Part shown: in pieces, positions 4,937 to 33,844 of the stretch
How the letters are laid out: each line of letters opens with the position of its first letter
Numbering within the stretch: the stretch's first letter is position 1
DNA from: Thermoanaerobaculia bacterium
GTDB lineage: Bacteria; Acidobacteriota; Thermoanaerobaculia; Multivoradales; Multivoraceae
Assembly (NCBI GenBank): GCA_022822365.1
Contig: JAJEBV010000008.1
Coordinates: forward strand, 169,524-233,523
Length of the DNA: 64,000 nt
Direction of reading: 5' to 3'
Program-made: the position numbers and the translations under genes
The notes under the pieces: model-generated
The model's database searches: none
What the model was told of the DNA's origin: nothing
What the model saw: the letters and a program-made list of their open reading frames with translations, nothing else

Positions 4937-5156
4937 GCTGCCGTCTCCCCTAAGGGCCGGCCTGTCGCCGGCGTCTCGTTTCCCTTAACTGCTGCAACCT
5001 GCCCAACCAGGACGCGTAGACCTGTCTGGCGAAGCGGCGGCAGCTTAGCGGAAGCGCCGGCGCCTCCCTCGAATGCCGCCCGGCCAACCGGTGAACGTGA
5101 GACAATGCCGCGGCGCTGCTCGCCCCGGAGCGAGGCGCCCCGACCGGAGGTTCCCA

Positions 5157-8534: not shown

Positions 8535-8554
8535 CATCCACGAACGAAACGCCT

Positions 8555-8618
8555 CCGCCACTGGGTGCGCCGGCGCCCCCGCCGGCACCAGGCGCGATGC
8601 CGCGAAGCGGCGAGCCCG
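8555..8618. repeat. ~65-nt GC-rich repeat, intergenic copy
   Basis: ccactgggtgcgccggcgcccccgccggcaccaggcgcgatgccgcgaagcggcgagcccga. Lies between the tricorn stop and the PQQ-protein start. Contains the hairpin GCCGGCG-CCC-CGCCGGC. A second copy lies at 18825-18888 inside the MTase CDS. Confidence 0.7.
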
Positions 8619-8643
8619 AGCCAATCCCATTCAGGAGAATCCC

Positions 8644-10029: not shown

Positions 10030-10043
10030 TCTGACGGCGCGAT

Positions 10044-12233: not shown

Positions 12234-12350
12234 AATCTCGGAGCTACTCATCATGAGATTGCGGACTGGAGATTCAGAAATCTCGGAGCTAGTGATCTTG
12301 AAATCTCGGAGTACACTAACCGGAAATCTCGGAGTACAACTGAGACTTCG
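12231..12350. repeat. AT-rich cluster of four direct 12-mer repeats GAAATCTCGGAG, with degenerate and inverted partial copies, upstream of the ATPase gene
   Basis: Exact copies at 12232, 12277, 12300 and 12323 (spacings 45, 23, 23). Partial inverted copies occur (gagatt at about 12255 and 12270). Local GC about 45% against a ~70% background. The 11-mer CTTGAAATCTC (12297-12307) recurs inverted at 33913-33923. Confidence 0.7.
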
Positions 12351-12365
12351 GTTAGAGTCGTCGAG

Positions 12366-17347: not shown

Positions 17348-20300
17348 GCCTCCAGGGCTGGAACGATCTGCGCCACGGCGGCCTGCTGCTCGACGCGCAA
17401 CGCCAAAGCGAAATCGCCGCCTCCACCCGTGCCCGCGTCCTCGATCCGTGGCTGGAGAGCGAGGCCCGCCGGCGGGCCGACCTGCTCCGCGACCCTGGCG
17501 CCGCCAACGCCGGCGAACGCACCGAGTTCGTCAGCTTCGTGCTGGAGAGCCTGTGCGGCTTCGAACCGGACGACCTGGGCAGCCGCTGGCTGCGCGGCAG
17601 CCGCATCCCAGCGGAATGGAGCCGTCGCGCCCTGACCGGCGAAAGCGTCCGCCCAAACCACCTATGGCTGGGGCCGAAGGGAGCCGTCCTCCCCGTCTTC
17701 GTCACCGGCGACAGGCAGGTCGGCATCGGCCGCGGCCGGCGCGAAACGAGCCGCGCCCTCGGTTGGCTGCGCGCCGGCAACGAACGGCTCGCCCTGCTCA
17801 CCAACGGCCGCCAGTGGCGGCTTCTCTTCGCCGGCCTCGACTTCGACGCCTGGTGCCAGTGGGACGCCGACCTCTGGTTCGCCGAGGGGGCTCCCACGCC
17901 GGCCCTGAACGCGCTGCTCACGCTGATCCAACCGGAGCTCTGGACACCCGAGGAAGAAGGCGCCGACCCGCCCCTGCTGCGCGCGGTCCGCGACAGCCGC
18001 AAGGGCCAGTCCGAACTCTCCGAGGCACTCGGCGAACGTGTGCGCGAGGCGGTCGAACGCCTGATCCAGGGCCACGGCGAAGCCCTGAAGCAAGAGTGCG
18101 CGACCGTGGACAAGGCCGACATCTACCGCGCCGCCTGCCGCGTCGTCATGCGCCTGGTGGTCATCCTCTTCGCCGAAGCGCGGGGACTGCTGCCGCGGAA
18201 CGACGCCGTCTACCACGACAGCTACGGCCTGGGCGGCCTGCACGAATCGCTGCGGCGCCGGGCGGCGGCCGGACGCTCGCAAACCCAGAGCTACGGGGCC
18301 TGGCCGCGGCTGCTGGCGCTGTTCAAGCTGGTCCGCAAGGGCTCACACCACCCCGACCTTGCCGTTCCCGCCTACGGCGGCGACCTGTTCGCACCCGGAT
18401 CGCCTACAGCCGACGACCGCCTTTCGCGCGCTCTGGCCGTCTTCGAGACCGCGTGTCTCGACGGCGAACTCCTCTCCGACGCCGAAGTCCACGAGATGCT
18501 GGAGCGTCTCACCCGGACCCGCATCCGCATCCGCCAGGGCAAGACCAGCCGCCTCGTAGCGGCGTCCGTCGACTTCTCCGATCTCTCGACCGAGTACATC
18601 GGCGTCCTCTACGAGGGTCTGCTCGACTACGAACTCAAGACGGCGCCGAGCGACGACTCGATCATCTTCCTTGCCGTCGGCGAGCAGCCGGCGCTGCCCC
18701 TGTCACGACTGGAAGAAATGGACGACAAGGCCCTCCGCAGCCTCTTCGCCGCGATGAAGAAGGCGTCCAGCCCCGACGCCGACGAGGATTCAGCGCCCAC
18801 CGACTCCGCATCCGACGACGCTCCCCCACTGGGTGCGCCGGCGCCCCCGCCGGCATCGGGCGCGACGCCGCGAAGCGGCGAGCCCGAACCCACCGAAGAC
18901 CCCCGCCAGACCATCCGCACCCACGCCGAAGCCTGGGCCCGCCACGCCGCCCTCACTGCCGGCCTCGTGAAGAAACCACCGAAGTCCCAAGCAACCCTCC
19001 TCTCCTCCCACGAAGACGAACTCCGCAAACGCGCCGCCCAACTCGTCAACCGCGTCGTCCTGCCCAACGAGTGGTACCTCGTGCGCTGGGGCGGCACCCG
19101 CAAGGGCTCCGGCAGCTTCTACACACGGCCCGGCCTCACCGTGCCCACCGTGCAACGCACTCTTCGCCCGCTGGCCTACGACCCGCCGCTCGATGACGAC
19201 GGCAAACCCGACCGCGATGCCCCACCCGCGGACTGGACTCCTAGGCGTCCCGAGGACATCCTGAGCCTGAAGGTCTGCGACCCGGCCTGCGGCTCCGGCA
19301 GCTTCCCGCTGGCCGCACTCCGCTTCCTCACCGACGCGCTCTACGCCTCCGTCCGGCACCACCGCCGCATCGAAGACCGGGACGACCGCTCCCTCGTCCG
19401 CCTGCTCGGCCTGGACGACTCCGGGGAGACCGAGGCCGATGCCGTCGAGCGACCGGGCGACGAACTCATCCCCTGCCCACCCGACGCCGACGACTTCGAG
19501 CCGCGGCTGCGCGCCGTTCTGCGGCGCTACGTAGTCGAACGCTGCATCTACGGTGTCGACGTCGACCCGCTGGCCGTTTCCCTCTGCCAGCTCTCCCTGT
19601 GGATCGAGACGATGGACCGGGACCTCCCCTTCTCCTTCCTCGACCACAAGATCCGCTGCGGCAACTCGCTCATCGGCGCCTGGTTCGACCAGTTCCAGCA
19701 CTACCCCGCGATGGCCTGGAAGAACCGCGAAGCCGGCGACAAGAACCATTCCAACGGCGTCCACTACGAGAAGGGCGCCCAGACCAAGGCGATAAAGGAG
19801 TGGGTCAAGAACGAACTGACCCCCGACCTGCGGCACACCCTGGAGGGCCGCACCCTCTTCCACGAAGACCTGCTCGAACAGGCGGCCGCCGCCCACGGCG
19901 CCGCCCTCGAAGGCCTGGAACGCATGCACCGGCTCCCCATCCGGGACTCCGCCGCCCGTGCCCGCCTCTACCGCGAGGAACTGACCGGTTCCGACGAGTG
20001 GCGCTCGCTCAAGAACGCGATGGACCTCTGGTGCGCCTGCTGGTTCTGGCCCGCCGACGAACTGGACCGCGCTCCCCTGCCCACCACGTTCACCGACCCC
20101 GGGCCCGAGACGCGCGCCGTAGCCGAACGCATCGCAGCCGCGATGCGCTTCTTCCACTGGGAACTGGAGTTCCCGGATGTGTTCCGGGAAGAGGGAGCGG
20201 GCTTCGACGCGATGCTGGGCAACCCACCATGGGACATCGCCAAACCGAAGTCGCAGGAGTTCTTCTCCAGCATCGATCCGCTCTACCGCTCCTACGGCAA

Positions 20301-22683
20301 GCAGGAAGCCCTGCGCCGGCAGAACGGCTACTTCGACGAGGACCAGGAGATCGAGCGCGACTGGCTCGCCTACAACGCCCGCTTCCGCGCCCAATCGAAC
20401 TTCGCAGCTCGTGCGGCCTCTCCCTTCGGCGATCCCGCGGAGAACGACCAGAGCGAACGGCGCTTTTACCTTGGCAAGGGCAATCTCAGTCTGCACGACA
20501 GTTGGCGCGAGACACGAGGTCGCTCACGCTGCTACGCCGACACCGACCACTCTTTCAGACACCAGGGGTCGGCTGACCTGAACCTGTACAAGCTGTTCCT
20601 AGAGCAGGCTCATGCGCTGCTCGCCATCGGAGGGCGGCTCGGCTTCCTCGTCCCGTCGGGCCTGTACTCCGACAAGGGCACCGGCCCTCTGCGGGACCTG
20701 TTCCTAGAACGGTGCCGATGGGAGTGGCTCTTCGGCTTCGAGAACCGAGCCAAGCTGTTCCCTATCGACAGCAGGTTCAAGTTCAACTCGGTGATCGTCC
20801 AGAAAGACAGCCAGACCCACGTCATCCGTACCGTCTTCATGCGCCGCGACCTGACCGATTGGGAAGAGGCCGAGGAGTTCGCCGTCCCCTACAGCCTCGA
20901 TCAGGTCAACCGATTCAGCCCGAAGAGCCGCGCGATCTTGGAGATCGAGTCACAACGTGACCTCGAAGTCCTCGAGAAGATCTACGCCAACTCGGTACTC
21001 CTCGGCGACGGCGGCCCCAACGGCTGGGGCATCGGCTACGCCACCGAGTTTCATATGACGAACGATTCGAAGCTCTTCCCGCCCCGCCCCCGGTGGGAAG
21101 CGAAGGGTTACCGCCCCGACGAGTACAGCCGCTGGCTCCTCGGCAACTGGCATCCGATCGACGAACTGTGGTCCGAACTCGGCGTCGGTCCCGATAATCC
21201 CGAGCCCGCTGCGATCGAAGTCGAAGACTGGCTGTACGAGCCCGACGCCAGCCCGGAGCGCCGCCAAGCTGAGCGCAGCTTCATCCATGGCCATTTCCTC
21301 GCACCCGGCGATGTCGAAGCCACCGGGTGGGAACTGCGGTGCGCCCAACCGCCCTACGACCGCCTGCCCGTGCCAAGAGTCGCCATTCCCGAGGGCATCG
21401 TCCTGTCGAGAGAAACCGACGCATGGATCCACGAGACCGAGATCGAGGACACGGCCCTTCCGCTGTACGAAGGCCGGATGATCGGCCAGTTCGACTTCAG
21501 CGAGAAGGGCTGGGTCAGCGGTAAGGGAAGAAGTGCCGTCTGGCGCGAGATTCCGTGGGAGCAGAAGCAGATCGAACCCCAGTACCTGATGGCGCAGAGC
21601 GCGTACGTCTCATCCGGGAAGTCGGTTTTGCGACCAAAGATCGCCTACATGCGAGTCAGTTCCTCGACAAACTCCAGGTCCACGATCGCTACGTATCTCG
21701 GCAGCCACCCCGCCGGGGACAGCGTCTTCTACTTCGTGCCCTGTGACGATGACCCGGAGGTTGCCACAGTCATCGCCTCTATCTTCTCGACGCTGGCGTT
21801 CGACTTCGTCATTCGCGCACGCCTCAGCGGCTTGAACATGAGCGAGTTCGTCATGGTGGACGCGGCCCTTCCGCCACGTCTCGGAAGCCTCACGCAAGCC
21901 ATGCTAGGGCCCGCCATAGCCCTTTGCCTCACCGGCCCCTCGTCAGCCGTGGAGCGCCTCCGCCTAGCGGCAGCCGACGGGTCTTCCCGTGCTTCCCGGC
22001 TCAAATCGCTGGCGGCCCTCACGCCGGCCGCACGGCTCGAGAGGATCTCGGCACTAGACGCGATAGTCGCAGCTTCCTTTGGCCTACGAACAGGCGACCT
22101 GAACTACGTGCTCAGGGGCTGCGACGAGATAGAGCCGGAGGGTCTGGCGCCGAAGGGCTTCTGGCGAGTCGACAAGGACAAACCGCCGGAACTCCGCCAC
22201 ACGGTCCTGGCCCAGATCGCCTTCACCGACCTTCAGCGCCACATCGAGTCCGCCGCCGGCGACCGCGAAGCCGGAATTCTGGCTTTCATGTCACAGAACC
22301 AGGGCGAAGGCTGGCACCTCCCCGAGACCCTCCGCCTCGCCGACTACAACCTCGGCCACGACGACCGCGCCCAAGAGCACCAGCGGGTAGCCACCGAACT
22401 CGGTCCTCGCTTCTACGATTGGCAGCTCGCCCAGACGCCTGAAGAAGCCTGGGCCGAAACCCACCTCCACGCCCGCAACCTCTTGGGCGAACACGCCTAC
22501 CGCAGACTTCGAGCCGAAATCGAGCAAAGGCCTCCAGAGCACACTCCCGCCACCACCGCCCCGACCTTCTCCGAGATCGCCGAAGAGCGCCACCGTTGGG
22601 ACTACTGGGTCAACCGGACGGCAGAGCCCACCTCGAAGCCCTCGAAATCAGTAAACACGGACCAGACTGACCTCTTCGACTGA
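17344..22683 (+). CDS. large N6-adenine DNA methyltransferase (PglX/DrmMI-like, gamma-class)
   Basis: TTG start overlapping the drmD-like stop (cTTGA). About 1779 aa. SAM motif I LKVCDPACGSGSFPLAAL (about 19272-19305) and catalytic motif IV GNPPWD (about 20221-20232). The track ORF 16624.. is extended upstream by read-through of the previous gene in another frame. Contains an in-frame copy of a ~65-nt repeat at 18825-18888. Confidence 0.8.
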   Translation: MSLQGWNDLRHGGLLLDAQRQSEIAASTRARVLDPWLESEARRRADLLRDPGAANAGERTEFVSFVLESLCGFEPDDLGSRWLRGSRIPAEWSRRALTGESVRPNHLWLGPKGAVLPVFVTGDRQVGIGRGRRETSRALGWLRAGNERLALLTNGRQWRLLFAGLDFDAWCQWDADLWFAEGAPTPALNALLTLIQPELWTPEEEGADPPLLRAVRDSRKGQSELSEALGERVREAVERLIQGHGEALKQECATVDKADIYRAACRVVMRLVVILFAEARGLLPRNDAVYHDSYGLGGLHESLRRRAAAGRSQTQSYGAWPRLLALFKLVRKGSHHPDLAVPAYGGDLFAPGSPTADDRLSRALAVFETACLDGELLSDAEVHEMLERLTRTRIRIRQGKTSRLVAASVDFSDLSTEYIGVLYEGLLDYELKTAPSDDSIIFLAVGEQPALPLSRLEEMDDKALRSLFAAMKKASSPDADEDSAPTDSASDDAPPLGAPAPPPASGATPRSGEPEPTEDPRQTIRTHAEAWARHAALTAGLVKKPPKSQATLLSSHEDELRKRAAQLVNRVVLPNEWYLVRWGGTRKGSGSFYTRPGLTVPTVQRTLRPLAYDPPLDDDGKPDRDAPPADWTPRRPEDILSLKVCDPACGSGSFPLAALRFLTDALYASVRHHRRIEDRDDRSLVRLLGLDDSGETEADAVERPGDELIPCPPDADDFEPRLRAVLRRYVVERCIYGVDVDPLAVSLCQLSLWIETMDRDLPFSFLDHKIRCGNSLIGAWFDQFQHYPAMAWKNREAGDKNHSNGVHYEKGAQTKAIKEWVKNELTPDLRHTLEGRTLFHEDLLEQAAAAHGAALEGLERMHRLPIRDSAARARLYREELTGSDEWRSLKNAMDLWCACWFWPADELDRAPLPTTFTDPGPETRAVAERIAAAMRFFHWELEFPDVFREEGAGFDAMLGNPPWDIAKPKSQEFFSSIDPLYRSYGKQEALRRQNGYFDEDQEIERDWLAYNARFRAQSNFAARAASPFGDPAENDQSERRFYLGKGNLSLHDSWRETRGRSRCYADTDHSFRHQGSADLNLYKLFLEQAHALLAIGGRLGFLVPSGLYSDKGTGPLRDLFLERCRWEWLFGFENRAKLFPIDSRFKFNSVIVQKDSQTHVIRTVFMRRDLTDWEEAEEFAVPYSLDQVNRFSPKSRAILEIESQRDLEVLEKIYANSVLLGDGGPNGWGIGYATEFHMTNDSKLFPPRPRWEAKGYRPDEYSRWLLGNWHPIDELWSELGVGPDNPEPAAIEVEDWLYEPDASPERRQAERSFIHGHFLAPGDVEATGWELRCAQPPYDRLPVPRVAIPEGIVLSRETDAWIHETEIEDTALPLYEGRMIGQFDFSEKGWVSGKGRSAVWREIPWEQKQIEPQYLMAQSAYVSSGKSVLRPKIAYMRVSSSTNSRSTIATYLGSHPAGDSVFYFVPCDDDPEVATVIASIFSTLAFDFVIRARLSGLNMSEFVMVDAALPPRLGSLTQAMLGPAIALCLTGPSSAVERLRLAAADGSSRASRLKSLAALTPAARLERISALDAIVAASFGLRTGDLNYVLRGCDEIEPEGLAPKGFWRVDKDKPPELRHTVLAQIAFTDLQRHIESAAGDREAGILAFMSQNQGEGWHLPETLRLADYNLGHDDRAQEHQRVATELGPRFYDWQLAQTPEEAWAETHLHARNLLGEHAYRRLRAEIEQRPPEHTPATTAPTFSEIAEERHRWDYWVNRTAEPTSKPSKSVNTDQTDLFD

Positions 22684-22799: not shown

Positions 22800-23846
22800 A
22801 TGGCCGGACTCCCGCGAATCGTCAAGGACCAGCTAGAGCAGGCGAAAGGCGCGTGCCTCGCCGCCGTCGAGACCTACAACAGGCCCGGCGTGGCCTTTCG
22901 GACACGGACATTCACCGTTCTCATGGCGATTGCGTGGACGTCGCTGTTCCATGCGATCTTCTACCGTCGCGCCCGAAAGCCCTGGTACGTGCGAAGCGGC
23001 GCCGGCCGCGGCATCCGGTATGAGAAGGTAGACGGGGAACCGAAGCACTGGGAGCTGAGCGAATGCACGCGCCAGTTCTATGGCGGCCACAACCCTCCAC
23101 AACGCAAGAACCTCGAGTTCATGGTGCTTCTCCGGAACAAGATCGAGCACCGCCACCACCCCGAACTCGATCTCGCGCTGTACGGTGAATGCCAAGCGTG
23201 GCTGATGAATTTCGAGGAACTTCTCGTAGCCGAGTTTGGGGCCGCCCAAGCACTCGCCGGACATCTTGATCTCGCCCTGCAGTTCTCGGCCTTTCGGCCC
23301 GAAGGACAGCAAGAGGCGATCCGGCGCCTGAACTCATCCGCAGCCAAAGACCTCCTAAGCTTCATTCAGAGCTACCGCGCCGGTCTCCCGGCAGATGTTC
23401 TAGAGAGTTCCTCGTACTCCGTCAGAGTCTTCCTGCTCCCCAAGCTCGCCGTCCGGGACAACGCAGCCGACCTCGCCGTGGAGTTCGTGCCGTACGACCC
23501 CACGAACCCCGAAGAGATGAAGCGGTTGAAGCGAGTCACAGCGATGATCAAGGAGAAGCTGACACCCGTTGCAAGTGCCGGCCTCATGAGACCGTCAGAA
23601 GTCGTCGCTCGCATTCAGGAACACCTACCCGACTTCTCCATCCACACGCACACGCAAGCCTGGAGGACCTACAACGTCCGGCCGCCGACCGGTGCCAACA
23701 GCCCAGCTTCGACTCGGCCCGAGTTCTGCATCTACGACGAGTTAGCTCAAGGTTATGGCTACACGGAAGCTTGGGTGAAGTTCCTCCTCCGGAAACTCAG
23801 TGACACGGCTGAGTTCGACCGAGTGATGAGCTGGAAGCCCAGCTAG
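22800..23846 (+). CDS. hypothetical protein (defence-island accessory; no motif recognised)
   Basis: 348 aa ORF with an ATG start and a protein-like, non-Arg-biased composition. Positioned immediately after the MTase. Confidence 0.5.
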   Translation: MAGLPRIVKDQLEQAKGACLAAVETYNRPGVAFRTRTFTVLMAIAWTSLFHAIFYRRARKPWYVRSGAGRGIRYEKVDGEPKHWELSECTRQFYGGHNPPQRKNLEFMVLLRNKIEHRHHPELDLALYGECQAWLMNFEELLVAEFGAAQALAGHLDLALQFSAFRPEGQQEAIRRLNSSAAKDLLSFIQSYRAGLPADVLESSSYSVRVFLLPKLAVRDNAADLAVEFVPYDPTNPEEMKRLKRVTAMIKEKLTPVASAGLMRPSEVVARIQEHLPDFSIHTHTQAWRTYNVRPPTGANSPASTRPEFCIYDELAQGYGYTEAWVKFLLRKLSDTAEFDRVMSWKPS

Positions 23847-23972
23847 CTAACCACGCGACGGAGGACAGGAGATGGCGAAAATGCACTGTGGCGGTGGGAG
23901 CAGGGGAGGAGGACGGAAGACGGTATCCGCGACGCCGAGACGCAGGCACGCAGATTCCACCGCGCTCCCGGC

Positions 23973-24830
23973 TCAAGGTCTCGGCATTCGCCACCCGAAC
24001 AGCTCTCGCCACGTCTCAACCGCCGCCCTCAGCTTGCCCTCGTACTCGAGCTGCAGCGCCTCTTCACTGATCGCCAACCACCCGCGCGCGATGTCGGCGA
24101 GTTCTCTGCGACGTCCTTGTCCTATCCCAGCGTTCACACTTGGGCCTAAGCCCACCGGATCGGGCCAGTCGTCTGTTATCCGGTCCGCGATCGAAGCCAT
24201 GTAGAACCGGATCTCATGGCGGTACTCGCCAAACGGCTCCGTCACAAGGTCCAGGGCCATGACCTCGAGGAGAAACGCGGGCTCGATGGGGTCTCCTGCC
24301 TCGCGGTTGATTCCCTTCACCATCTTCACGAAGGGCACGAACTTCTCGTCGCACTCCTTATTCTTCGCGGTCACGAGCGCGTGCTGCTCCCGCGGATCCG
24401 TGGCCATCCACGCCGACCCGCTAGGCATCCAGTAGCCTCCTCCGCGTCGCGGGAACACCGGAGCGACCTCGTAAGACGCAACGTCTTCCTCGCCATAGTT
24501 GATCGTGACGACGTTGTCGTCGGCGGCCAGGTCCGGCCACCGCGTCGCCAGCAGGTCGCGCAACGCGAGCACCGCCGCCGTGCCCGTACCTTCGGCCAAG
24601 TCCGCCTGCGGTCCCTCCGGGTCAACGACGACAAAGATGTCCACGTCCTTCAACCTCTTCGTTTTCGTGTGCCGCCTGTAGCTGCCGGTCAGGAAGTCGT
24701 CCACTAGTTGCCACGATGCCCCGATGTGGTCACGCACCAACTCGTGCCGGGTTTGGGCCTGTCGACTCTCGGTCCTGGTGATCTCAAGATTCGACTTCAG
24801 GTTGTCGAAAGCGTCATCGACGTAGCTCAT
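23973..24830 (-). CDS. cGAS/DncV-like nucleotidyltransferase (CD-NTase, SMODS domain)
   Basis: An ATG at 24830 gives MSYVDD (the track starts at GTG 24839). Pol-beta NTase motif GSYRRHTKTKRLKDVDIFVVV (GS...DxD) and a third acidic residue in SYEVAPVF. Last gene of a four-gene coupled operon with a Trip13-like ATPase. Confidence 0.7.
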   Translation of the reverse strand: MSYVDDAFDNLKSNLEITRTESRQAQTRHELVRDHIGASWQLVDDFLTGSYRRHTKTKRLKDVDIFVVVDPEGPQADLAEGTGTAAVLALRDLLATRWPDLAADDNVVTINYGEEDVASYEVAPVFPRRGGGYWMPSGSAWMATDPREQHALVTAKNKECDEKFVPFVKMVKGINREAGDPIEPAFLLEVMALDLVTEPFGEYRHEIRFYMASIADRITDDWPDPVGLGPSVNAGIGQGRRRELADIARGWLAISEEALQLEYEGKLRAAVETWRELFGWRMPRP

Positions 24831-24839
24831 TCTCTTCAC

Positions 24840-25349
24840 CTACTTTCGGTAGTAGGTCATTCCGGCGCTTGCGTGTGGTCCGGCCGCTAGTGTGCCGAAG
24901 CTCACCGAGCGCATGCCGGCAACGGAGGTTCTCGTTCCCGGCGACCATCCTGGCTGGGGCGAATGGGGTCCGTTGAAGCTGCAGAAGAGGCGGTACGTGG
25001 TTCCACCGGGAACTCGCTCGAACTTCGCCATGAACTGCGCCAGCGCGGCGCGGTCCGCCGTGAATTTCCGATCTCCCACCCCGGTGAAGGTGTATGACAC
25101 GGGGAATTCGAAGATCGGGCTCACCGTTCCGCTTGGTTGGTGGCATTCGAGTGCGACGCGCTCAAGCGAACCTTCTTCGATCCAGTTTGAGATGGCCGCT
25201 TGATCCCTTGGCCAGTACGCGAACAGGCGCGTGGGGTCGATTCCCAGCGTCCCCAGAATGTCGGCTATCGAGCCCATGATGACGTCCGCCAAGTGAGTAG
25301 CCGTATGGGTACGCGTGTAGGTGGTGACCGAGGTCCTGGACGACGTCAT
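24840..25349 (-). CDS. small protein (169 aa), candidate HORMA-domain partner (by size and context only)
   Basis: Internal ATG at 25349 (MTSSRTSVTTY...) overlaps the stop of the upstream gene (ATGA). Lies between the Trip13-like and CD-NTase genes. Confidence 0.45.
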   Translation of the reverse strand: MTSSRTSVTTYTRTHTATHLADVIMGSIADILGTLGIDPTRLFAYWPRDQAAISNWIEEGSLERVALECHQPSGTVSPIFEFPVSYTFTGVGDRKFTADRAALAQFMAKFERVPGGTTYRLFCSFNGPHSPQPGWSPGTRTSVAGMRSVSFGTLAAGPHASAGMTYYRK

Positions 25350-25837
25350 GACTTCATTCTCAGCCTGCGGAGGGCGTCCATGTCGATGGCTGAACGGGAA
25401 GCTCGTTCCGTCTTGGCCGTGGGTGCCGTCTTCGGCGGCGCGTCGACAGATAGGTGCGCCGAGCGCTTGGCCGCGCTGGACACACTGTTGTCGAGCGCTC
25501 CGGGCAAAGGCACATGAAGTACCCACGCGGGCGTGGCACTCCCGCCGCCGGGCACAGGGTTGAGATTCTCCTTGACGGCGAGCGCCGCATCCGCAGTGAC
25601 GACTCTAATCGTCAGATGCAGCCCGACGTCGCAAAGAACCAAGCCGTCCGACTCCAGGTGTCCGCCCGCGATGAGGGCGGGGCCCAGACCCTCTAGCGCT
25701 GTCAGCTCGCGCTCTACGCTTCCGGCCGCAACGTTGGGGCTCCGCTCAAGCGTCGTAGCGATGAGCGTCGTGACCACGTTCCACGCTTCGGCGGCGCTTC
25801 GAACGGGGGAAGCGGCGATTGTCCTTTGTCGCTCCAT
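25346..25837 (-). CDS. small protein (163 aa), candidate HORMA-domain partner (by size and context only)
   Basis: ATG at 25837 (MERQRTIAAS...) lies 1 nt after the Trip13-like stop. Its stop overlaps the next start. Confidence 0.45.
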   Translation of the reverse strand: MERQRTIAASPVRSAAEAWNVVTTLIATTLERSPNVAAGSVERELTALEGLGPALIAGGHLESDGLVLCDVGLHLTIRVVTADAALAVKENLNPVPGGGSATPAWVLHVPLPGALDNSVSSAAKRSAHLSVDAPPKTAPTAKTERASRSAIDMDALRRLRMKS

Positions 25838-25838
25838 T

Positions 25839-26759
25839 TCAGCCCTCCGAACCTCCCTGACTGATACCGCCGTCCTCCATGACCCGCGAGGCCGCCGCGA
25901 GCAGGTCGTCGATCGTCGTACTTCCCGGGTCGAGCACCGTCTCGTCCCGGCCGAGCATCGCCTCCAGAATCGTCTTCCGGACCCGCCGGCCGTCCGCTCC
26001 CGCCAAGCGTCCCGCGACCTCTTCGAGCTGCTCGTCGCAAGCAAGTTCGCCGAGACACGCGTAAGCCGGCGCCATCGACCGAAGAGCGGACCTCAGGATC
26101 GCGACGATTCCCGCAGAATCCGGCACCGGGACGTGAATTTGCACGTCCACCCGCGACAAGAAGGCCTCGTCCAGGACGCCGACGAAGTTGCTCGTTGCCA
26201 CGAAGACCAGATTGGGGAACGCCGTCGTATTCGCGTCGAGCGCCGCCAACACGGCGTCCGTCGCTCGGTGCACGTCTGCCGGATTCGCCGCCAGCGACGC
26301 CTCGCTCCTCGCGACGGCCATCGACTCGATCTCGTCAAGGAGAACGACCGTAGGCACACCGTCGTCGGCAAGGCTCGGCACGTACTCCGCGAGCAACTGC
26401 GTTACAGCGCTCTGGCTCTCCCCATGCTCGGCGCTCATGAGACCGTGGGGATTGACCTCGACCAGCCGCGCTTGACGCTTCGGGGTGATCTTCGCCAGTT
26501 CATGGGCCAGACCACGTGCCAATGTCGTCTTACCTGTTCCCGGGGGGCCGTGTAGCAGGACGAGCCCATGCAGCGCCGTCGTCTCGAAGGGCAGTTCGCG
26601 ACGTAGGCGGAGATTCAACGCCGTGGCTCGGAGCAGACGGTCCTTCACCGAAGCATCAACTACAATCGAGTCCCACAGGCCCGCGTAGGCTGGATCCGGC
26701 ATCTCGCGAACAGCGCGCACGGACTCGGCCGCTTGACTGGGTGCGTTTTCGCTTCGCAT
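25839..26759 (-). CDS. Trip13/Pch2-like AAA+ ATPase
   Basis: ATG at 26759 (MRSENAPS...). Matches Trip13 blocks: LWDSIVVDASVKDRLL, LLHGPPGTGKTTLARGLA, EVNPHGLMSAEHGESQSAV, VLLDEIESMAVAR, NLVFVATSNFVGVLDEAFLSRVD. Confidence 0.85.
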   Translation of the reverse strand: MRSENAPSQAAESVRAVREMPDPAYAGLWDSIVVDASVKDRLLRATALNLRLRRELPFETTALHGLVLLHGPPGTGKTTLARGLAHELAKITPKRQARLVEVNPHGLMSAEHGESQSAVTQLLAEYVPSLADDGVPTVVLLDEIESMAVARSEASLAANPADVHRATDAVLAALDANTTAFPNLVFVATSNFVGVLDEAFLSRVDVQIHVPVPDSAGIVAILRSALRSMAPAYACLGELACDEQLEEVAGRLAGADGRRVRKTILEAMLGRDETVLDPGSTTIDDLLAAASRVMEDGGISQGGSEG

Positions 26760-26831
26760 GACTGCAACTCTACTTCGCAACAGGCGCGACCGCAACCCTC
26801 GAATCCGGCGACTCGAACATTCCCGTGCGGC

Positions 26832-27263
26832 ATGACCATGGTCGATCCCGGTTCCCCTAAGCCAACCGCGGCCCGGCCCTCGGCGAGACCCGCTCCCAAC
26901 CGCCGACGAGATCGCCCTCAGGTGGGCAGCGTTCTCCGCCGAGCCCGCCTGCACCACGACCTCTCGCTACGCGAGGTGGAACGCCGCATCGGCCGGTCCA
27001 ACGCGTATTTGTCCCAGGTGGAGCGCGGCCTGATCAAGCAGCCCGACCCGATCGTTCTCCTGGAACTGGCCGAACTCTACGGCCTGAACTTCGAGACCCT
27101 CGCGGCCTGGGCGAACTGGGTTTCCGCCGACCCGAACCCTTCGGGCGCGCAACCGCGTGACTCAACCGCCGTTCTCGTCCGGCAGGTCATGGAACTCGAC
27201 GCCGCCGAAAGGGCGACGGTTCTCCGCTTCGTCGACTCCATCCTGCGCAAGCGGCGGACGTAG
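26832..27263 (+). CDS. XRE-family helix-turn-helix transcriptional regulator
   Basis: ATG at 26832 (MTMVDPGS...). HTH LSLREVERRIGRSNAYLSQVERG. Divergent from the Trip13-like operon with a 72-bp intergenic region. Confidence 0.7.
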   Translation: MTMVDPGSPKPTAARPSARPAPNRRRDRPQVGSVLRRARLHHDLSLREVERRIGRSNAYLSQVERGLIKQPDPIVLLELAELYGLNFETLAAWANWVSADPNPSGAQPRDSTAVLVRQVMELDAAERATVLRFVDSILRKRRT

Positions 27264-27400
27264 GCACCCCTTCCCTCATGCCTGCACGCGCCAGACCGCT
27301 CCAAGGTCTGCACTCGCAACGCTGCTAGCCGCGCGCCCTCTCCCTCTAGCTTGACCGCGGCCCCCACGCTCGCACCTGTCCAGACACGATCCCCTCCGGT

Positions 27401-28246
27401 TCAACCTCGCTCTGCGGCCTCGTACACCGGCTTCCTCAACTTGAAGAACCACTCCGGCACCATCGGGCTAAGCCGCCGATGTTCGAAGAGGCGGGCCTGC
27501 ACGAGCCGGACGTCGCAAAGTGTCTGACTACCAGACTGCGCCCCAGCCCGTGACAGGAAGCGATGCAGCTTCTCCATGCGGATCCTTGCCGCAGATTGAG
27601 CAGTAACCGCCAATACCACCCACGCGACAAGCCTGAGACACGCCGCCACCAAGAGAACCACGTCCAGCAGTGAAGCCTCTGCAAGCACCGCCCCCAGAAG
27701 GACCGTCACCACCGACGCACCTACCAACGACTTGACGACCCAGATCCACTCCCTGCGTAATCGCTCCTCCCAGCGACAGCTAGCCCTCTGGCAGTGCAAC
27801 TGCGCCGCCACCGGCTCCGCGGGAATGGCTTCCGCTCGATACCAGTCAACCAGATCCTCCGGCGAGTCCCTTCGCGCGCTCCCTTTTCTCGCCAGCTCCT
27901 TCACTCTGTCATCCGTGGGCTGCTCCACACCGCTGTGAGCCGACCAAGGTAGGTCAAGGACGAAACAGTCAAACGCCTCCTGGATCGTCGCAGCTTCCTC
28001 CTTCATCCGGTCCCCCCACCGAGCCAGAAGCGGCTGGTCCACGAACCAAAGCAAGACAACGATGACGGTCGCTGCGTGACTGTCCGACCCCGCCTCCCTG
28101 GTCAAGCCCCAGAGCGCTACAACCGCAACGGCCACCACGCCCCCGAGCCGCACGCCCTCTACCTTCTTGACCTGCCGGTACAGCCAACGCAGCGCCGCCA
28201 GCCTTTCCAGTGACCGCTGGCTGTTCTGCCGCTCCCGAATGCTCAC
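27401..28246 (-). CDS. predicted multi-pass membrane protein (candidate effector)
   Basis: 281 aa, GTG start. Hydrophobic helices (GVVAVAVVALWGL, ATVIVVLLWFV, LVGASVVTVLLGAVLAEASLLDVVLLVAACLRLVAWVVLAV). No enzymatic motif recognised. Confidence 0.5.
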   Translation of the reverse strand: MSIRERQNSQRSLERLAALRWLYRQVKKVEGVRLGGVVAVAVVALWGLTREAGSDSHAATVIVVLLWFVDQPLLARWGDRMKEEAATIQEAFDCFVLDLPWSAHSGVEQPTDDRVKELARKGSARRDSPEDLVDWYRAEAIPAEPVAAQLHCQRASCRWEERLRREWIWVVKSLVGASVVTVLLGAVLAEASLLDVVLLVAACLRLVAWVVLAVTAQSAARIRMEKLHRFLSRAGAQSGSQTLCDVRLVQARLFEHRRLSPMVPEWFFKLRKPVYEAAERG

Positions 28247-28836
28247 CCGCTTCTACCCTCCTCCATCGAATCCTACTCAGCGGGCCTATAGACGAAGTGC
28301 TTAACCGGCGTTCAACGCTCGGGATCCCCGATCTTCTCAGCCGCCGGCACCATCGCATGCTCCACGAAGGCGGTTCCGGCGTCAGAATAGGCGATCAGCA
28401 CGCCGTCCTGTACCACCATCCCCACGGTCGGCATCTGCACGAGAGCCCGCCGCCGTCAATCGGCCCCACCTCCGCCCGTGAGCTCGTCAAAGGCCTGGAG
28501 GACGCGGGCATCCTGATCACCGGCAAGTAGTTCGCTTTCCGGCGTGGGACGGCCGGCCTATGGAGCCGCCCTACGTCCTGGTGTGCCTGTAACGACCGCC
28601 GCCGCACTTGGAGGAGGCAGTGCCGCGGGAGAACGGACCGTTCACACGCGGCTTAGCTCGAACCGCTACGTGGGTACCGCCTGGGCGCTCGAGAGATCTG
28701 CTGGTCCGCGAGTGCGGCACCCGGCCCAAGCCCCGTGTTCATGCCGACTCCGCTCCGTGCGTAGCGCACCAGCGGCACGCCGACGGCCGAAGCTCGTACA
28801 CTGAGCAGCCCCTAGACTGGGCCGGCGCTTCCTCTC

Positions 28837-29349
28837 ATGCTGAAACACTCCACGACCATACGCGACGTGAGCCGTGCGCTTCCAACGCTCGTGCCCTCGG
28901 ACCCCGGTCTTGCCGTGCCTCTCTCGGCCGACCGGCTTGATGCCCACACGAAAGAGCTACGCCACCACTACGACGACCTCTTCCCGGTTATCGATCGCGC
29001 AGGCCACACGCTCGCGGGGGCGATCAAGATGCTCGACCCCGGGGAGAGCCCCGATCCCGGTGGTGAAGGCGTCGCTGCTCTCGAACAGAGCGAGGCCTAC
29101 TTCAAGCACCGTCGAGAGCAGCTCCTGCACCTGCGCAACGCCTTCGTTGAGATCGGCGCTTCGCCTTCGCACGAGATCTTCGAAGCGCTCGACCGCCTCG
29201 ACGAGCTGTACATGTGGATCGTCGTGACGATGCAGGAGGCACGCTGGGACGTCTTGATCTTCAAGGGACTCAAGGCCGGGGCCGCATCCCCAAGGGAGCG
29301 CTCCTTCACGTCCTCAGCCGCGTGGCTGGCGTCGCTTCCCGGCCGTTGA
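28837..29349 (+). CDS. hypothetical protein
   Basis: 170 aa ORF with an ATG start, non-repetitive composition and no recognised motif. Confidence 0.35.
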   Translation: MLKHSTTIRDVSRALPTLVPSDPGLAVPLSADRLDAHTKELRHHYDDLFPVIDRAGHTLAGAIKMLDPGESPDPGGEGVAALEQSEAYFKHRREQLLHLRNAFVEIGASPSHEIFEALDRLDELYMWIVVTMQEARWDVLIFKGLKAGAASPRERSFTSSAAWLASLPGR

Positions 29350-29780: not shown

Positions 29781-30236
29781 ATGATCCACTTCACCATCAA
29801 CGGACAGGAGTTCGAGTCTCCGCAGAAACGCGTCTCCGTCGAGTGGCTCCTGAAGTTGATCGGCTGGAGCCCGAAGGACGCCCAGCTCGTGCGTGAGGTC
29901 ACGGGCGAGACGTGGTCCGACCCGTCCGCTGAGGTCGAGTTGCGCGAGGGGGACAAGTTCGAGGCCAAGCCGCGTCGGGGCCCGCTGCCTCCGGAGTCAA
30001 AGATCCACTACAAGGTGAACGGAGAGCCGCAGGTCACAACGAAGACGCCGATGATCCTCGAGGAAATCCTGCGCCGCGCGGGCGCCGACGCCGCCATCGA
30101 CCTCAACCAACTGGGGAGCTACTACCTCGACAACGTGGGTACGGGCGCCAGGTACGAGAACCTCGACGACGAAGTGCCGATCGTCGACGGCGACGAATTC
30201 GTGGCCCTCTACGCCGGACCGACGCCCGTCGCCTGA
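29781..30236 (+). CDS. multiubiquitin-like protein (two tandem beta-grasp/Ubl repeats)
   Basis: 151 aa. Two ~70-aa repeats each start with IH(F/Y)x(I/V)NG and end with (D/E)GDxF (IHFTINGQEF...EGDKFE; IHYKVNGEPQ...DGDEFVALYAG). First gene of an E2/E1/JAB operon. Confidence 0.6.
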   Translation: MIHFTINGQEFESPQKRVSVEWLLKLIGWSPKDAQLVREVTGETWSDPSAEVELREGDKFEAKPRRGPLPPESKIHYKVNGEPQVTTKTPMILEEILRRAGADAAIDLNQLGSYYLDNVGTGARYENLDDEVPIVDGDEFVALYAGPTPVA

Positions 30237-30240
30237 CGCA

Positions 30241-30621
30241 GTGCTCGAGACCATCGCCCGAGAGTTGCGGGAACTCGATGTCGAGGCCCGCGTCGTGCAT
30301 TCGTGGAACGGAATGGGGGGCGGCGGCGTCGTTTTCCCGCTCCGTGCGCCAAGCGGCCGCTTCAAGGGGAAGACACTGCAGCTTGGCCTGAGCTTTCAGG
30401 AGGATGCCTACCCTGAGTACCCGCCGCACTTCGTCCACTTTCGGCAAGCGGAGATCGAGGGCACGCACTTCACGATGCACTCGAAGCACGAGTTCGAAGG
30501 CGCCGAATGGTGGGCCTTCAGCTTCCCTCCGAGCGACTTCTGGGACCGTCTGGCGCCATCGGAGAAGAACATGCGGACCTACGTCCGGCGCCATCTCTAT
30601 CGCGTCCTGGAGCAATTGTGA
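30241..30621 (+). CDS. E2/UEV-like protein (UBC fold without a catalytic Cys)
   Basis: 126 aa, GTG start 5 nt after the previous stop. GKTLQLGLSFQEDAYPEYPPHFVHF mirrors the E2 core (FPxDYPFKPPKVxF), but the protein contains no cysteine. Confidence 0.5.
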   Translation: MLETIARELRELDVEARVVHSWNGMGGGGVVFPLRAPSGRFKGKTLQLGLSFQEDAYPEYPPHFVHFRQAEIEGTHFTMHSKHEFEGAEWWAFSFPPSDFWDRLAPSEKNMRTYVRRHLYRVLEQL

Positions 30622-32075
30622 CCTTCGAGGCGGCGTTCGTCGAGTCCACTCACGATGCAGCTTGCCGCCACCTGCTGGCGCATCTGCGCTCGGGCAGACG
30701 GCAGGAAGATCTCTGCTTCGCGCTGTGGCGGCCAAGTACCGGCGCCAGTCGGACGACCGCCCTGATTTCGGAGCTCGTCTTGCCGGAGGAAGGCGAGCGC
30801 ACCCTGCACGGCGGCGCGAGCTTCCAGCCGAACTTCCTGTCACGCGCCCTTCGCCTCGCCTGCGACCAGAACGCAGGTCTGGCCTTCCTGCACAGCCATC
30901 CGGTACCCGGCTGGCAGGGCATGAGTAGTGCGGATGTGAAGGCCGAACGGGACCGCATCGGCGGGCCGGCCCGAGCCACTGGTCTTCCGCTCGTAGGCCT
31001 CACGCTCGGAACGGACGAATCGTGGAGCGCCCGTTTCTGGAACTGGGAAGGCGGCGAGCTCGAGCGAACGTGGTGCCCGAAGGTGAGGGTCATCGGTCGT
31101 CGCCTGCGTCTGACCTGGAACGACGAACTGGTGCCGCCGCCCCGGCGGCGAGCGGTCCTCCGGCGCACGACAGACACTTGGGGCTGCGCGCGCCAATCAG
31201 ACCTGGCTCGGCTGCGGATAGGAGTCGTGGGTCTCGGGAGCGTCGGGTGCCTCGTTGCGGAGACACTCGCCCGCATCGGCGTCGAGAACATCGTTCTCGT
31301 GGACGCGGACCAAGTGAAGCGCCACAACCTGGACCGTCTCCTGTACGCTGGCGAGGACGACATCGGCCGCCTCAAAGTCGAACTCGCAGCCGAGAATCTG
31401 CGCCGGTCGGCGACGGCCGCGAACTTCACCGTCGAGTCCCACGTCGGCTGGCTCCAGCAGAGCGACTGCTATCGCGCCGCGCTGGACTGCGACGTCCTGT
31501 TCTCCTGTGTGGACCGACCTCTTCCAAAGGACCTTGTGAACCACATCGCCTACGCCCACTGCGTCCCCGTCGTGTTCGGCGGCGTCTTCGTCGACACGAA
31601 GCGGGACAGCACACTCGGCCAAGCGACCTGGAGCGTGGTCCGTGCCGGGCCCGAGCGCCGCTGCCTGCGATGCGACGGGCAGTACACGACCTCGGACGTC
31701 GCCATGGAGCGCGACGGCTCCCTGGACGACCCGAACTACATCGCCAGACTCACCGGCGGCAGACCTACGAACCAGAACGTGTTCCCGTTCAGCGCCAACC
31801 TCGCCAGTCTCATGACGCTCGAGATGATTCGAATGGTCGTGGGCGACACATGGTGGCCCCAGAATGCCGGCAAGCTGGACTACAGCTTCGTGCCGAACGT
31901 GCTTCGCACGGAAGACAGCCGCTGCCGCGAGTACTGTGAGGTGGCGAACCGGACGGCGCTGGGAGATCACATCGCCTATCCGTTCCTCGAAGCGGCGGCG
32001 CCCTCCGCCAACCTCGGGCGGATGGCTCGACTGCGAAGCTGGCTTCGGAAACTGGTAGGCGGGAGGGCCCCATGA
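30618..32075 (+). CDS. JAB/JAMM deubiquitinase-like domain fused to an E1-like (ThiF/MoeB) adenylyltransferase
   Basis: GTG start overlapping the E2-like stop (GTGA). JAMM motif LAFLHSHPVPGWQGMSSAD (HxHx7Sx2D). E1 Rossmann IGVVGLGSVGCLVAETLARIGV...VDADQVKRHNLDRLL. Cys-rich region CLRCDG. Confidence 0.8.
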   Translation: MTFEAAFVESTHDAACRHLLAHLRSGRRQEDLCFALWRPSTGASRTTALISELVLPEEGERTLHGGASFQPNFLSRALRLACDQNAGLAFLHSHPVPGWQGMSSADVKAERDRIGGPARATGLPLVGLTLGTDESWSARFWNWEGGELERTWCPKVRVIGRRLRLTWNDELVPPPRRRAVLRRTTDTWGCARQSDLARLRIGVVGLGSVGCLVAETLARIGVENIVLVDADQVKRHNLDRLLYAGEDDIGRLKVELAAENLRRSATAANFTVESHVGWLQQSDCYRAALDCDVLFSCVDRPLPKDLVNHIAYAHCVPVVFGGVFVDTKRDSTLGQATWSVVRAGPERRCLRCDGQYTTSDVAMERDGSLDDPNYIARLTGGRPTNQNVFPFSANLASLMTLEMIRMVVGDTWWPQNAGKLDYSFVPNVLRTEDSRCREYCEVANRTALGDHIAYPFLEAAAPSANLGRMARLRSWLRKLVGGRAP

Positions 32076-33340
32076 GCGCCATCACGAGTCTCGCTCTGAC
32101 GGACGTGCGCTGCTTCGAGGGTACTCAGCGTGTCGGACTGCCCCGCATCGCGGTGGTGGTGGGAGAGAACAGCGCAGGGAAGTCGACCTTCCTGGGCTGC
32201 CTTCGCGGCATGGCCAAACTGGCGAGTCTCGACGACCTGGACGACGAGAACCACTTCGATCAGCCGCCGTTCAACATGGGGCCGTTCAGCACGATCGCCC
32301 GCTCCGGCGCGGTAACCTTCGCGCTGGAAGCGACATTCGAGGGCCACAGCTACGAACGCGTGCGCGTCGTCTACGACGAAGGTCCCGACGGCGAACCCCG
32401 CGAGCGGGAGCTGGAATTCGTGCTCAGTACGAAGGGGCCCGACGCACTTGCCTTCGGCATCACGCGGATCGACCCGTCAGACGATGAACACAGGGAGACG
32501 TGGCGAGTCGCCGGACCGGGTTTCGAGTTCGACTTCGAACAGTCGTCGGTTTCCTACCGGCAGTTCAGCACTTGGCTCTCGCGCTCCGTCCGTCGGGGCA
32601 ACCTCCCGCACGACGGCGATCCGACCTTGAGGCGAAAGCGAACCGGCGACGTGACGCCGGAAGCGGATCGGGCGTTCACCCGCTTCGTGAACTTCTTCCG
32701 GGAAAGCCCTCGCGTTCCGCCGCCCGACCAGAAGCTCCTGGTTGTCGCCAACAACCCGGTCGGTTGGCCGCGCGACCGCTCGTTCGCCACAAACCCGTTC
32801 GGCCGGGCGATGGACGAGCCGAGGCTCTCCGAGATTCGGAAACTGGGTAGTGAACTCGGCCTCTTCGGCGACTTGGAGATTCGGCGCGGACCCGCTGGCG
32901 AGTACGAGGTGTGGGCCGACGCCTCCGGCGAGAGCCGCAACCTCGTCGACGTCGGCTTCGGCATTCAGAGCGCGCTGCCAATGCTCCATGCCATCGTTTC
33001 TGCGACGAAGGGGGCCACGCTCCTCCTGCAACAGCCCGAGGCTCATCTGCACCCAAGAACGCAGGCTGCGCTGGTGCGCGTGATCGTGTCGCGCGGTAGT
33101 CGGCTCCTGGTCGAGACGCATAGCGACCACGTTCCGGACTGGTTCCGTATCGCCGCGATGTCGGGGCAGGTGGATCCGCAAGACGTGGGGATCGCCTACT
33201 TCCACCGCAGTGACAACGGCGCCTCCACGACCCTGCACGACATTCGGCTTGACGATCAAGCGAATCTGGACGATCCACCGCGCGGTTTCCGGGACTTCTT
33301 CGTCGACGAGACCGAGCGACTTCTCGGCTTCCGCCGGTAG
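32072..33340 (+). CDS. ABC-type (AAA_15/AAA_21, OLD/SMC-like) ATPase
   Basis: ATG overlapping the previous stop (ATGA). Walker A GENSAGKST, Walker B/D-loop LLLQQPEAHLHP. Confidence 0.75.
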   Translation: MSAITSLALTDVRCFEGTQRVGLPRIAVVVGENSAGKSTFLGCLRGMAKLASLDDLDDENHFDQPPFNMGPFSTIARSGAVTFALEATFEGHSYERVRVVYDEGPDGEPRERELEFVLSTKGPDALAFGITRIDPSDDEHRETWRVAGPGFEFDFEQSSVSYRQFSTWLSRSVRRGNLPHDGDPTLRRKRTGDVTPEADRAFTRFVNFFRESPRVPPPDQKLLVVANNPVGWPRDRSFATNPFGRAMDEPRLSEIRKLGSELGLFGDLEIRRGPAGEYEVWADASGESRNLVDVGFGIQSALPMLHAIVSATKGATLLLQQPEAHLHPRTQAALVRVIVSRGSRLLVETHSDHVPDWFRIAAMSGQVDPQDVGIAYFHRSDNGASTTLHDIRLDDQANLDDPPRGFRDFFVDETERLLGFRR

Positions 33341-33349
33341 GGCTGGGAC

Positions 33350-33844
33350 GTGTGTACTCGGGTAGTGCTGGACGCAAGTGCGTTCGACGTCGTCAACGAG
33401 GAATCGCCGGCGTCGGCCGGCGTGCAGCTCCGACATTGGATAGCCGAAGGGCATGGGCGGGTTGCGTACTCCACCTACGATCGTTGCGGGAAGCAACTCA
33501 AGTGGGACGACAAGGTCTGGGCACTCGTTCGCCGCTACAGCCAGAGCGGCCTGGCGAATCGAGTAGCTGACCAAGATGTTCAACGGGAAGAAGAACGGCT
33601 GCGACCCGTCGTGACACGCTCCGGGGAGAACGACAGGCAAATGCTCGCCCTCGCGGCCGCCTCTGATGCGAGGGTGATGGTCGTCAAAGATGGGAACCTG
33701 ACGAAGGACTTTGAGGACGTGGCGATCCTGCCGAAGGTGCCGGGCTATCGGCGTCGGGCCTTCCCGAAGGAGCTTCCGAGCCCGGCACGCAACGACTTCC
33801 TCCACAGGCGTCGCTGCTCACGGCGGCTGTCCTCACGTTCCTGA
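33350..33844 (+). CDS. small protein with a PIN-like signature (tentative)
   Basis: GTG start 10 nt after the ATPase stop. The N-terminal VVLDASAF and the later SGENDRQMLALAAASDARVMVVKDG resemble PIN acidic-residue blocks. Weak call. Confidence 0.35.
   Translation: MCTRVVLDASAFDVVNEESPASAGVQLRHWIAEGHGRVAYSTYDRCGKQLKWDDKVWALVRRYSQSGLANRVADQDVQREEERLRPVVTRSGENDRQMLALAAASDARVMVVKDGNLTKDFEDVAILPKVPGYRRRAFPKELPSPARNDFLHRRRCSRRLSSRS

Follow-up and report, generated by a model that had tools for sequence, protein, structure and literature searches.

We analysed a 64,000-nucleotide stretch of the Thermoanaerobaculia bacterium assembly GCA_022822365.1 (contig JAJEBV010000008.1, positions 169,524 to 233,523; referred to below as the window), with attention to a block of four minus-strand genes at 23973-26759. 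In the order of transcription these encode a TRIP13/Pch2-like AAA+ ATPase, two HORMA proteins (HORMA3 and HORMA2) and a cGAS/DncV-like nucleotidyltransferase (CD-NTase) of the CdnD type. An initial annotation had described the block as the sensor module of a type III CBASS (an antiphage system that signals through cyclic oligonucleotides), with Trip13, two HORMA-sized proteins and a CD-NTase joined by a 1-nt gap, an ATGA overlap and a 9-nt gap; coordinates and junctions are exact, and family matches for all four core proteins bear the description out. Upstream of the block, beyond a divergent gene for an XRE-family helix-turn-helix (HTH) repressor, lies a gene for an S-4TM (SMODS-associating four-transmembrane) effector (Table 1). 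We read the locus, with a probability of roughly 0.85, as a complete two-HORMA (HORMA2/HORMA3) type III CBASS with an S-4TM effector, in which the system's own repressor gene splits two transcription units. What we observed, and build this reading on, is who the genes are, how constantly they are ordered and linked, that the catalytic and ATPase motifs are intact, and that the operator-like sites are conserved.

The first protein of the block matches the TRIP13 model of PADLOC at 1.2e-110 and Pfam AAA at 2.5e-23, and the best solved relatives retrieved for it in a PDB search are eukaryotic TRIP13/Pch2 proteins (4.6e-32), in agreement with the Trip13/Pch2 assignment made initially. Its Walker A (GPPGTGKT, residue 71) and Walker B (VVLLDE, residue 138) motifs are both intact. 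HORMA2 covers 164 of the 166 profile positions of Pfam bacHORMA_2 (5.1e-25) and matches the PADLOC HORMA model at 2.6e-78; among solved structures, P. aeruginosa HORMA2 (6P8R/6P8S, 5.4e-17) comes closest to it. The N-terminal tail of HORMA2 is threonine-rich (TSSRTSVTTYTRTHTATH), and a Ser/Thr-rich tail at this end of HORMA2 has been described as the handle for the pore loops of Pch2 (Ye et al., bioRxiv 10.1101/694695).

PADLOC HORMA recognises HORMA3 at 8.9e-33, the local Pfam copy gave no match and a single-sequence PDB search reached just E 0.22, while a profile of 19 HORMA3 homologues from related loci matches PDB entry 6P8P at 6.6e-35. This entry is the second P. aeruginosa HORMA protein, named 'HORMA1' in the PDB and the 2019 preprint and HORMA3/Cap8 in later usage. 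An AlphaFold2 model of HORMA3 (mean predicted local distance difference test score [pLDDT] 72.8) had 6P8P as its sole significant fold match (probability 1.00, TM-scores 0.49/0.60). Its N-terminal strand is ordered, its C-terminal part has low confidence and closes in a short helix, and the model fits the 'locked-open' scaffold HORMA described for the 6P8P protein. With this fold check for HORMA3, and the bacHORMA_2 and 6P8R matches for HORMA2, the suggestion that the two open reading frames (ORFs) of approximately 165 residues encode HORMA proteins holds.

The nucleotidyltransferase matches Pfam SMODS (1.5e-13) and the PADLOC cyclase model (4.2e-86), and its score of 229.5 bits against the NCBIfam equivalog CBASS_cyclase_b lies above the cut-off of 200. 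Among solved structures P. aeruginosa CdnD (6P8U/6P82/6P8J) ranks first, matched over the full length at 4.5e-37; the next CD-NTase in the PDB search follows thirty orders of magnitude behind (2.7e-7), and no CdnC matched at 0.01. Residues G49, S50, D62 and D64 are invariant among 36 CD-NTase homologues, and the third acidic residue, at position 121, is E in 23 and D in 13 of them; the E121 of the window is therefore a normal variant. The cut-off exceeded and the invariant GS and DxD sustain the earlier view of this protein as a signalling CD-NTase with the GS...DxD...E motif, and sequence comparison points to a CdnD-type cyclic-oligonucleotide synthase. We take the CdnD proteins of two-HORMA operons to be members of CD-NTase clade D, subclade D05 of Whiteley et al. 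An alternative cdnD start, a GTG at 24839, would directly abut the HORMA2 stop codon. Taken together, the matches establish that the locus has the sensor half of a type III CBASS of the two-HORMA class, and this half looks intact.

Table 1. Features of the CBASS locus and of the surrounding island (window coordinates)
Feature	Position	Strand	Remarks
CdnD-type CD-NTase, 285 aa	23973..24830	-	ATG 24830, end 23973; 9 nt past HORMA2 stop
HORMA2 (Cap7-type), 169 aa	24840..25349	-	ATG 25349, TAG 24840; ATGA overlap with HORMA3 stop
HORMA3 (Cap8-type), 163 aa	25346..25837	-	ATG 25837, TGA 25346; 1 nt past TRIP13
TRIP13/Pch2-like AAA+ ATPase, 306 aa	25839..26759	-	ATG 26759, TGA 25839
Sensor-operon promoter with two operators (putative)	26742..26795	-	Subclade conservation, pattern search
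XRE-family HTH repressor, 143 aa, CapH-like by position	26832..27263	+	Divergent from sensor operon; HTH_31, HTH_3
S-4TM CBASS effector, 281 aa	27401..28246	-	Own transcription unit, convergent with XRE gene
DrmD-like SNF2 helicase and type IIG restriction/methylase or DrmMI-like protein	13946-22683	+	DISARM-like pair
DUF3644 protein, PDC-S19 (PADLOC 2.6e-120)	22800-23846	+	Convergent with cdnD
E1-like (ThiF) operon	29781-32075	+	Two small ORFs (151, 126 aa), then 522-aa ThiF E1 protein
AAA_21 ATPase, Menshen NsnB-like (4.7e-39)	32072-33340	+	Followed by 164-aa ORF 33350-33844
DruE-like helicase, 2037 aa	34004-40117	+	1.4e-112; MrfA zinc domain, C-terminal LexA-like S24 peptidase domain

Gene order and the S-4TM gene in related loci

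A scan of one genome per species yielded 53 related loci (individual loci carry L numbers below), onto each of which the window proteins were mapped by tblastn. These loci come from at least eight phyla (Acidobacteriota, Actinomycetota, Pseudomonadota, Spirochaetia, Gemmatimonadota, Verrucomicrobiota, Chloroflexota and Dormibacterota), and the statements on gene order rest on the approximately 48 informative loci of the set, which extend down to 30% cyclase identity. In all of these the order is TRIP13-HORMA3-HORMA2-cyclase. RefSeq annotation of plasmids agrees: on Rhizobium leguminosarum pRlBT01c and Polaromonas JS666 plasmid 1 the core is annotated as AAA ATPase, hypothetical protein, HORMA, 'CBASS oligonucleotide cyclase' and DUF6602, with an ImmA/IrrE peptidase and an HTH protein (CapP-CapH) divergent from it, and Rhodococcus opacus pLPS8 has an AAA ATPase, two hypothetical proteins, a 'CBASS oligonucleotide cyclase' and an 'S-4TM family putative pore-forming effector'. 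Because this order is the same in all informative loci and in the annotated plasmids, what the initial annotation took for a reversed arrangement is the norm for the two-HORMA class; cyclase-first fits the one-HORMA type of the E. coli MS115-1 operon (CdnC, HORMA, Pch2, NucC; bioRxiv 10.1101/694695). Since cyclase-first order is confined to one-HORMA systems, gene order is unsuited as a flag of oddity for two-HORMA loci and is no criterion for calling them unusual. One Rubritalea metagenome-assembled genome (MAG; L017, 315-6855) has two tandem TRIP13-HORMA3-HORMA2-cdnD copies, the second with a truncated TRIP13.

The S-4TM gene, which shares its strand with TRIP13 and lies beyond the XRE gene, ends 641 nt upstream of the TRIP13 ATG and is probably expressed on its own. 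Its product matches Pfam S_4TM (PF18159) over residues 2-277 of 281 at 4.8e-50 (171 bits, compared with a cut-off of 26.9) and PADLOC Effector/4TM at 8e-43. Hydropathy places membrane spans at approximately residues 29-49 and 57-75 and a double span at 166-220, with a soluble region of approximately 90 residues between the two pairs. The remark that no effector lies in the operon is thus accurate for the four-gene block, but the system is not effector-less; the separately encoded effector anticipated at that time exists, and it is one of the candidates then listed, the membrane protein beyond the divergent XRE gene.

The linkage of this gene family to the sensor core is widespread: at least 40 related loci have a 4TM gene no more than approximately 1.2 kb from the core, in varying positions but most often right behind the cyclase. 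It directly follows cdnD (gap of 10-130 nt) in most actinobacterial and several acidobacterial loci (L018-L038 among them), follows cdnD together with a co-directional XRE gene in L016, and is encoded on the XRE strand in L010 and L012. The layout of the window (4TM, reverse-strand XRE, TRIP13) recurs in ten loci (L001-L008, L013 and L043) assigned to Acidobacteriota, Spirochaetia, Gemmatimonadota, and Alpha- and Gammaproteobacteria. Nine 'Type III (HORMA2/3) / 4TM' systems have already been catalogued (Lau et al. 2022, Table S1). NucC takes the place of 4TM in more distant relatives; L055 and L056 have it downstream, L050 and L051 upstream. The NucC-like genes of the latter two (L050 240-761, L051 3435-4091) stand before TRIP13 rather than after the cyclase, so effector-first layouts occur with nuclease effectors too. 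Searches for CBASS effectors need to reach past a divergent regulator gene as well.

Comparison with the closest relative, L001 (a Candidatus Multivorans MAG, Acidobacteriota), separates the effector from the rest of the locus. Between the stop codons of cdnD and XRE (23972-27273) nucleotide identity is 94%; in the region beyond (27273-28833) it falls to 68% exactly over the S-4TM gene and returns to 82% past it. At the protein level the 4TM proteins are 56% identical and the other five proteins 92-98%; in L002 and L005, a comparably close pair, 4TM identity is 82%. This drop between otherwise near-identical islands indicates that the effector was swapped as a cassette at least once, and the subclade to which the window locus belongs is a compact natural case of a conserved sensor module whose effector cassette has been exchanged. 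A plus-strand gene (28837-29349), divergent from 4TM, encodes a 170-aa hypothetical protein with no family match; it has 78-82% nucleotide identity in L001 and L007, and is rearranged relative to 4TM in L001.

The XRE gene and the putative sensor-operon promoter

The XRE gene starts 72 nt from the TRIP13 ATG, and a homologue is divergent upstream of TRIP13 in approximately 25 related loci. The protein matches Pfam HTH_31 (2.4e-10) and HTH_3 (2.9e-10) and, weakly, PADLOC capH (1.5e-4); its architecture comprises a Pro/Arg-rich N-terminal extension of approximately 28 residues, the HTH domain, a linker and a conserved C-terminal helix. A single-sequence PDB search returned nothing useful; matches came with a profile, to generic repressors (phage immunity repressor, ClgR, SinR, ImmR and DdrO). 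Rhizobium CapH matches some subclade XRE members at 7e-6 to 5e-4, but not the XRE protein of the window. We therefore describe it as CapH-like in position and architecture, with marginal sequence similarity. CapP was searched for by tblastn with the Rhizobium protein, and none was found in the window at E 0.01; neither the 143-residue XRE protein nor the scanned neighbours contain a peptidase domain.

A putative promoter of the sensor operon consists of a -35 hexamer TTGCGG at 26795-26790 and a -10 hexamer TAGAGT at 26772-26767, separated by a 17-nt spacer. Across the subclade the -35 is TTGCGG in most loci and TTGACT in two, and the -10 is TAGAGT, TACAGT or TATAGT. The TRIP13 ATG lies 8 nt past the -10-like hexamer, so the mRNA is probably leaderless. 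Two 17-bp sites occur in this segment: O1 (TGCGAAGTAGAGTTGCA, 26779-26763) overlaps the -10 hexamer, and O2 (TGCGAAGCGAAAACGCA, 26758-26742) covers TRIP13 codons 1-6. They are the only two matches to TGCRAA-N8-GCA in the whole 64-kb window, 21 bp apart and both at the TRIP13 promoter. O1 is found in the window and in seven of the nine subclade loci scanned, and O2 is kept in register in the window and in seven of nine. The intergenic DNA around O1 and O2 does not align across the subclade, and O2 is conserved although the TRIP13 residues 3-5 that it encodes vary between loci.

From this pattern, O1 and O2 look like operators of the XRE protein on the sensor-operon promoter, through which it probably represses the TRIP13-HORMA3-HORMA2-cdnD operon. 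The subclade offers a CapP-less CBASS repressor, together with candidate operators that are open to direct testing. Two traits are particular to it: the effector forms its own transcription unit, convergent with a divergent XRE repressor that lacks CapP, and the effector cassette was exchanged. A third conserved site, TGCGAC-N8-TGCA at 25617-25633, was discarded: it falls in conserved HORMA3 codons for CDVGLH, and we put it down to coding constraint. Scanning for the operator motif upstream of the 4TM gene gave one 16-mer in L005, probably by chance, and a generic search for repeats common to the TRIP13 promoter and the DNA upstream of 4TM gave only short, chance-like pairs. A terminator scan of 23700-29000 gave a single terminator-like site, within the coding region of 4TM; shuffled sequence contains more. 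The convergent 4TM/XRE spacer folds no more stably than shuffled sequence (z = -0.15), and for this reason we claim no terminator between the two genes.

Working model and competing readings

The mechanistic steps of our model are carried over from P. aeruginosa, where the homologues have been characterised (Ye et al., bioRxiv 10.1101/694695). HORMA2 would close around a closure-motif peptide that appears in phage infection, and would then bind and activate CdnD, with HORMA3 as the scaffold for the HORMA2:CdnD complex. Once activated, CdnD would synthesise a cyclic oligonucleotide (the product of P. aeruginosa CdnD is cyclic tri-AMP [cAAA]; bioRxiv 10.1101/694695), and this diffusible signal would reach the S-4TM protein, which is presumed to breach the inner membrane and so abort the infection. 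In uninfected cells TRIP13 would pull on the Thr-rich N-terminal tail of HORMA2 and dismantle HORMA2:CdnD complexes that form spontaneously, keeping the system silent, and the XRE protein would limit expression of the sensor operon. Because the signal would be diffusible, separate transcription of the effector should be functionally indifferent. Signal chemistry, pore activity, repression and the trigger of derepression are the parts of the model that we infer.

A bolder extension can be put forward tentatively, as a possibility that we do not favour: sensor and effector of the subclade would be independent modules under separate regulation, with the CapP-less XRE gating the leaderless sensor operon alone by way of the paired operators, 4TM freely exchangeable by recombination, and two different sensors possibly feeding one effector. 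The last idea comes from three loci that have a second CD-NTase (PADLOC PDLC00776, approximately 1e-112) between the type III core and 4TM (L009 6889-8964; L011, same coordinates; L014 7158-9519), and thus two cyclases ahead of one effector.

Several observations weigh against the reading of the locus as a complete two-HORMA CBASS with S-4TM. The effector lies outside the co-transcribed sensor block, and no operator shared with that block was found upstream of its gene; the S-4TM protein retrieved no matching solved structure in a single-sequence PDB search; XRE is without a CapP partner and only marginally similar to CapH; a strict sigma-70 consensus scan of 23700-29000 found no promoter, which bears on the promoter assignment; and, with 4TM at 56% and the core at 92-98% identity to L001, it is an assumption that the signal is cognate to the 4TM allele found here. 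Some of these points would also suit a four-gene block that is effector-less, a degenerate or 'sensor-only' module whose signal acts on a distant effector or on nothing, S-4TM being the orphan of a separate type I CBASS: 4TM forms a transcription unit of its own and shares no operator with the core, from which it is also decoupled in sequence, and in L009, L011 and L014 the second cyclase directly precedes 4TM, as in type I CBASS; in these three loci 4TM may be part of a type I system. We nevertheless consider an orphan effector unlikely. Neither the window nor any of the ten loci of the same layout contains a second cyclase or a remnant of one (in the window, tblastn with the second cyclases of L009 and L014 matched cdnD itself alone), and 4TM accompanies the CdnD clade in at least 40 loci, be it upstream, on the XRE strand or right after cdnD. 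L016 and L048, close relatives without a second cyclase, have the same 4TM lineages right behind the type III core, and the scanned neighbours include no other nucleotide-sensor protein.

That the effector is instead another neighbour, either the convergent DUF3644 protein (22800-23846) or the downstream-island ORF 33350-33844, seems very improbable. The former is adjacent and is a PADLOC candidate defence protein, and both had been proposed initially as places to look. None of the 53 related loci, however, has a homologue of the DUF3644 protein, and PADLOC lists PDC-S19 as a single-gene candidate system; 33350-33844 has no SAVED, CARF or other family match, and it follows the unrelated AAA_21/NsnB-like ATPase, 6.6 kb away and past an unrelated E1-like operon. 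Neither proposal was sustained. Least credible of all is that the nucleotidyltransferase is a non-signalling minimal enzyme and the cluster not a CBASS, the outcome named beforehand as refuting. Its sole point is the E-for-D substitution at the third catalytic position, where E and D alternate among clear orthologues; the CBASS cyclase equivalog is exceeded, P. aeruginosa CdnD is matched over its full length, GS and DxD are invariant, and the cdnD gene is always accompanied by HORMA2, HORMA3 and TRIP13 in related loci. The two-HORMA type III CBASS with the S-4TM gene as its effector remains the reading that we prefer.

The surrounding island and known CBASS systems

The CBASS sits within a defence island. 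On its cdnD side lies the DISARM-like pair (helicase match 1.1e-190; partner of approximately 1780 residues), and part of this segment is common to L001 and L007. On the other side, the 522-aa ThiF protein has a Pfam match of 2.4e-32 and a PADLOC CBASS-type E1-E2 match of 1e-19, the two small ORFs before it being without a family match; the operon looks like a ubiquitin-like conjugation (Bil-type) defence operon lacking its own cyclase. The 164-aa ORF behind the NsnB-like ATPase had no match in the Pfam and PADLOC scans. In the DruE-like protein, the joining of the helicase to an S24 peptidase domain is an unusual fusion. Two very long minus-strand ORFs (4950-8630, 1226 aa, and 9939-13151, 1070 aa) have no Pfam or PADLOC match and may be spurious or novel in this sequence of 68% G+C.

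Among characterised systems, the two-HORMA type III CBASS of P. aeruginosa ATCC27853 (CdnD, HORMA2, HORMA3, Trip13, NucC; bioRxiv 10.1101/694695; PDB entries 6P82, 6P8R, 6P8P and 6P8U) has the same four sensor families, and shares with the window a Thr-rich HORMA2 N-terminus and a eukaryote-like TRIP13. Identity between corresponding proteins is approximately 20-35%, and the effectors differ: the nuclease NucC, activated by cAAA, in P. aeruginosa, and S-4TM, upstream behind a regulator gene, in the window. The one-HORMA CBASS of E. coli MS115-1 follows the same logic, in which the cyclase is switched on by HORMA and reset by Trip13 while the operon promoter is under a divergent HTH repressor, but it is cyclase-first, with a single HORMA, a cyclase of the CdnC type (clade C01), the nuclease NucC as effector and a CapP protease beside the divergent CapH. 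A clade-D cyclase and a 4TM effector are likewise paired in the type I CdnD12-4TM system of E. coli, a two-gene operon without HORMA or Trip13 that defends against phage in experiments (bioRxiv 10.1101/2023.05.21.541620).

The actinobacterial 'Type III (HORMA2/3) / 4TM' systems (Lentzea, Frankia, Streptomyces and Amycolatopsis; Lau et al. 2022, Table S1) have the same five components and the same sensor order; the CdnD of Rhodococcus opacus pLPS8 (NZ_CP093381.1) is 60% identical to that of the window. In the actinobacterial systems 4TM is the last gene of the operon, whereas in the window it lies upstream and converges on an XRE gene that stands alone; between the two groups, 4TM identity is only 24-32%. 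Where a regulator is listed for the actinobacterial systems it is a CapH-CapP fusion (Lau et al. 2022), and proteobacterial relatives have separate CapH and CapP. Given the catalogued HORMA2/3 systems with 4TM and the active CdnD12-4TM operon, the window system is of a catalogued kind; its architecture is a minor variation on a known CBASS class, and it leaves the understanding of CBASS unchanged.

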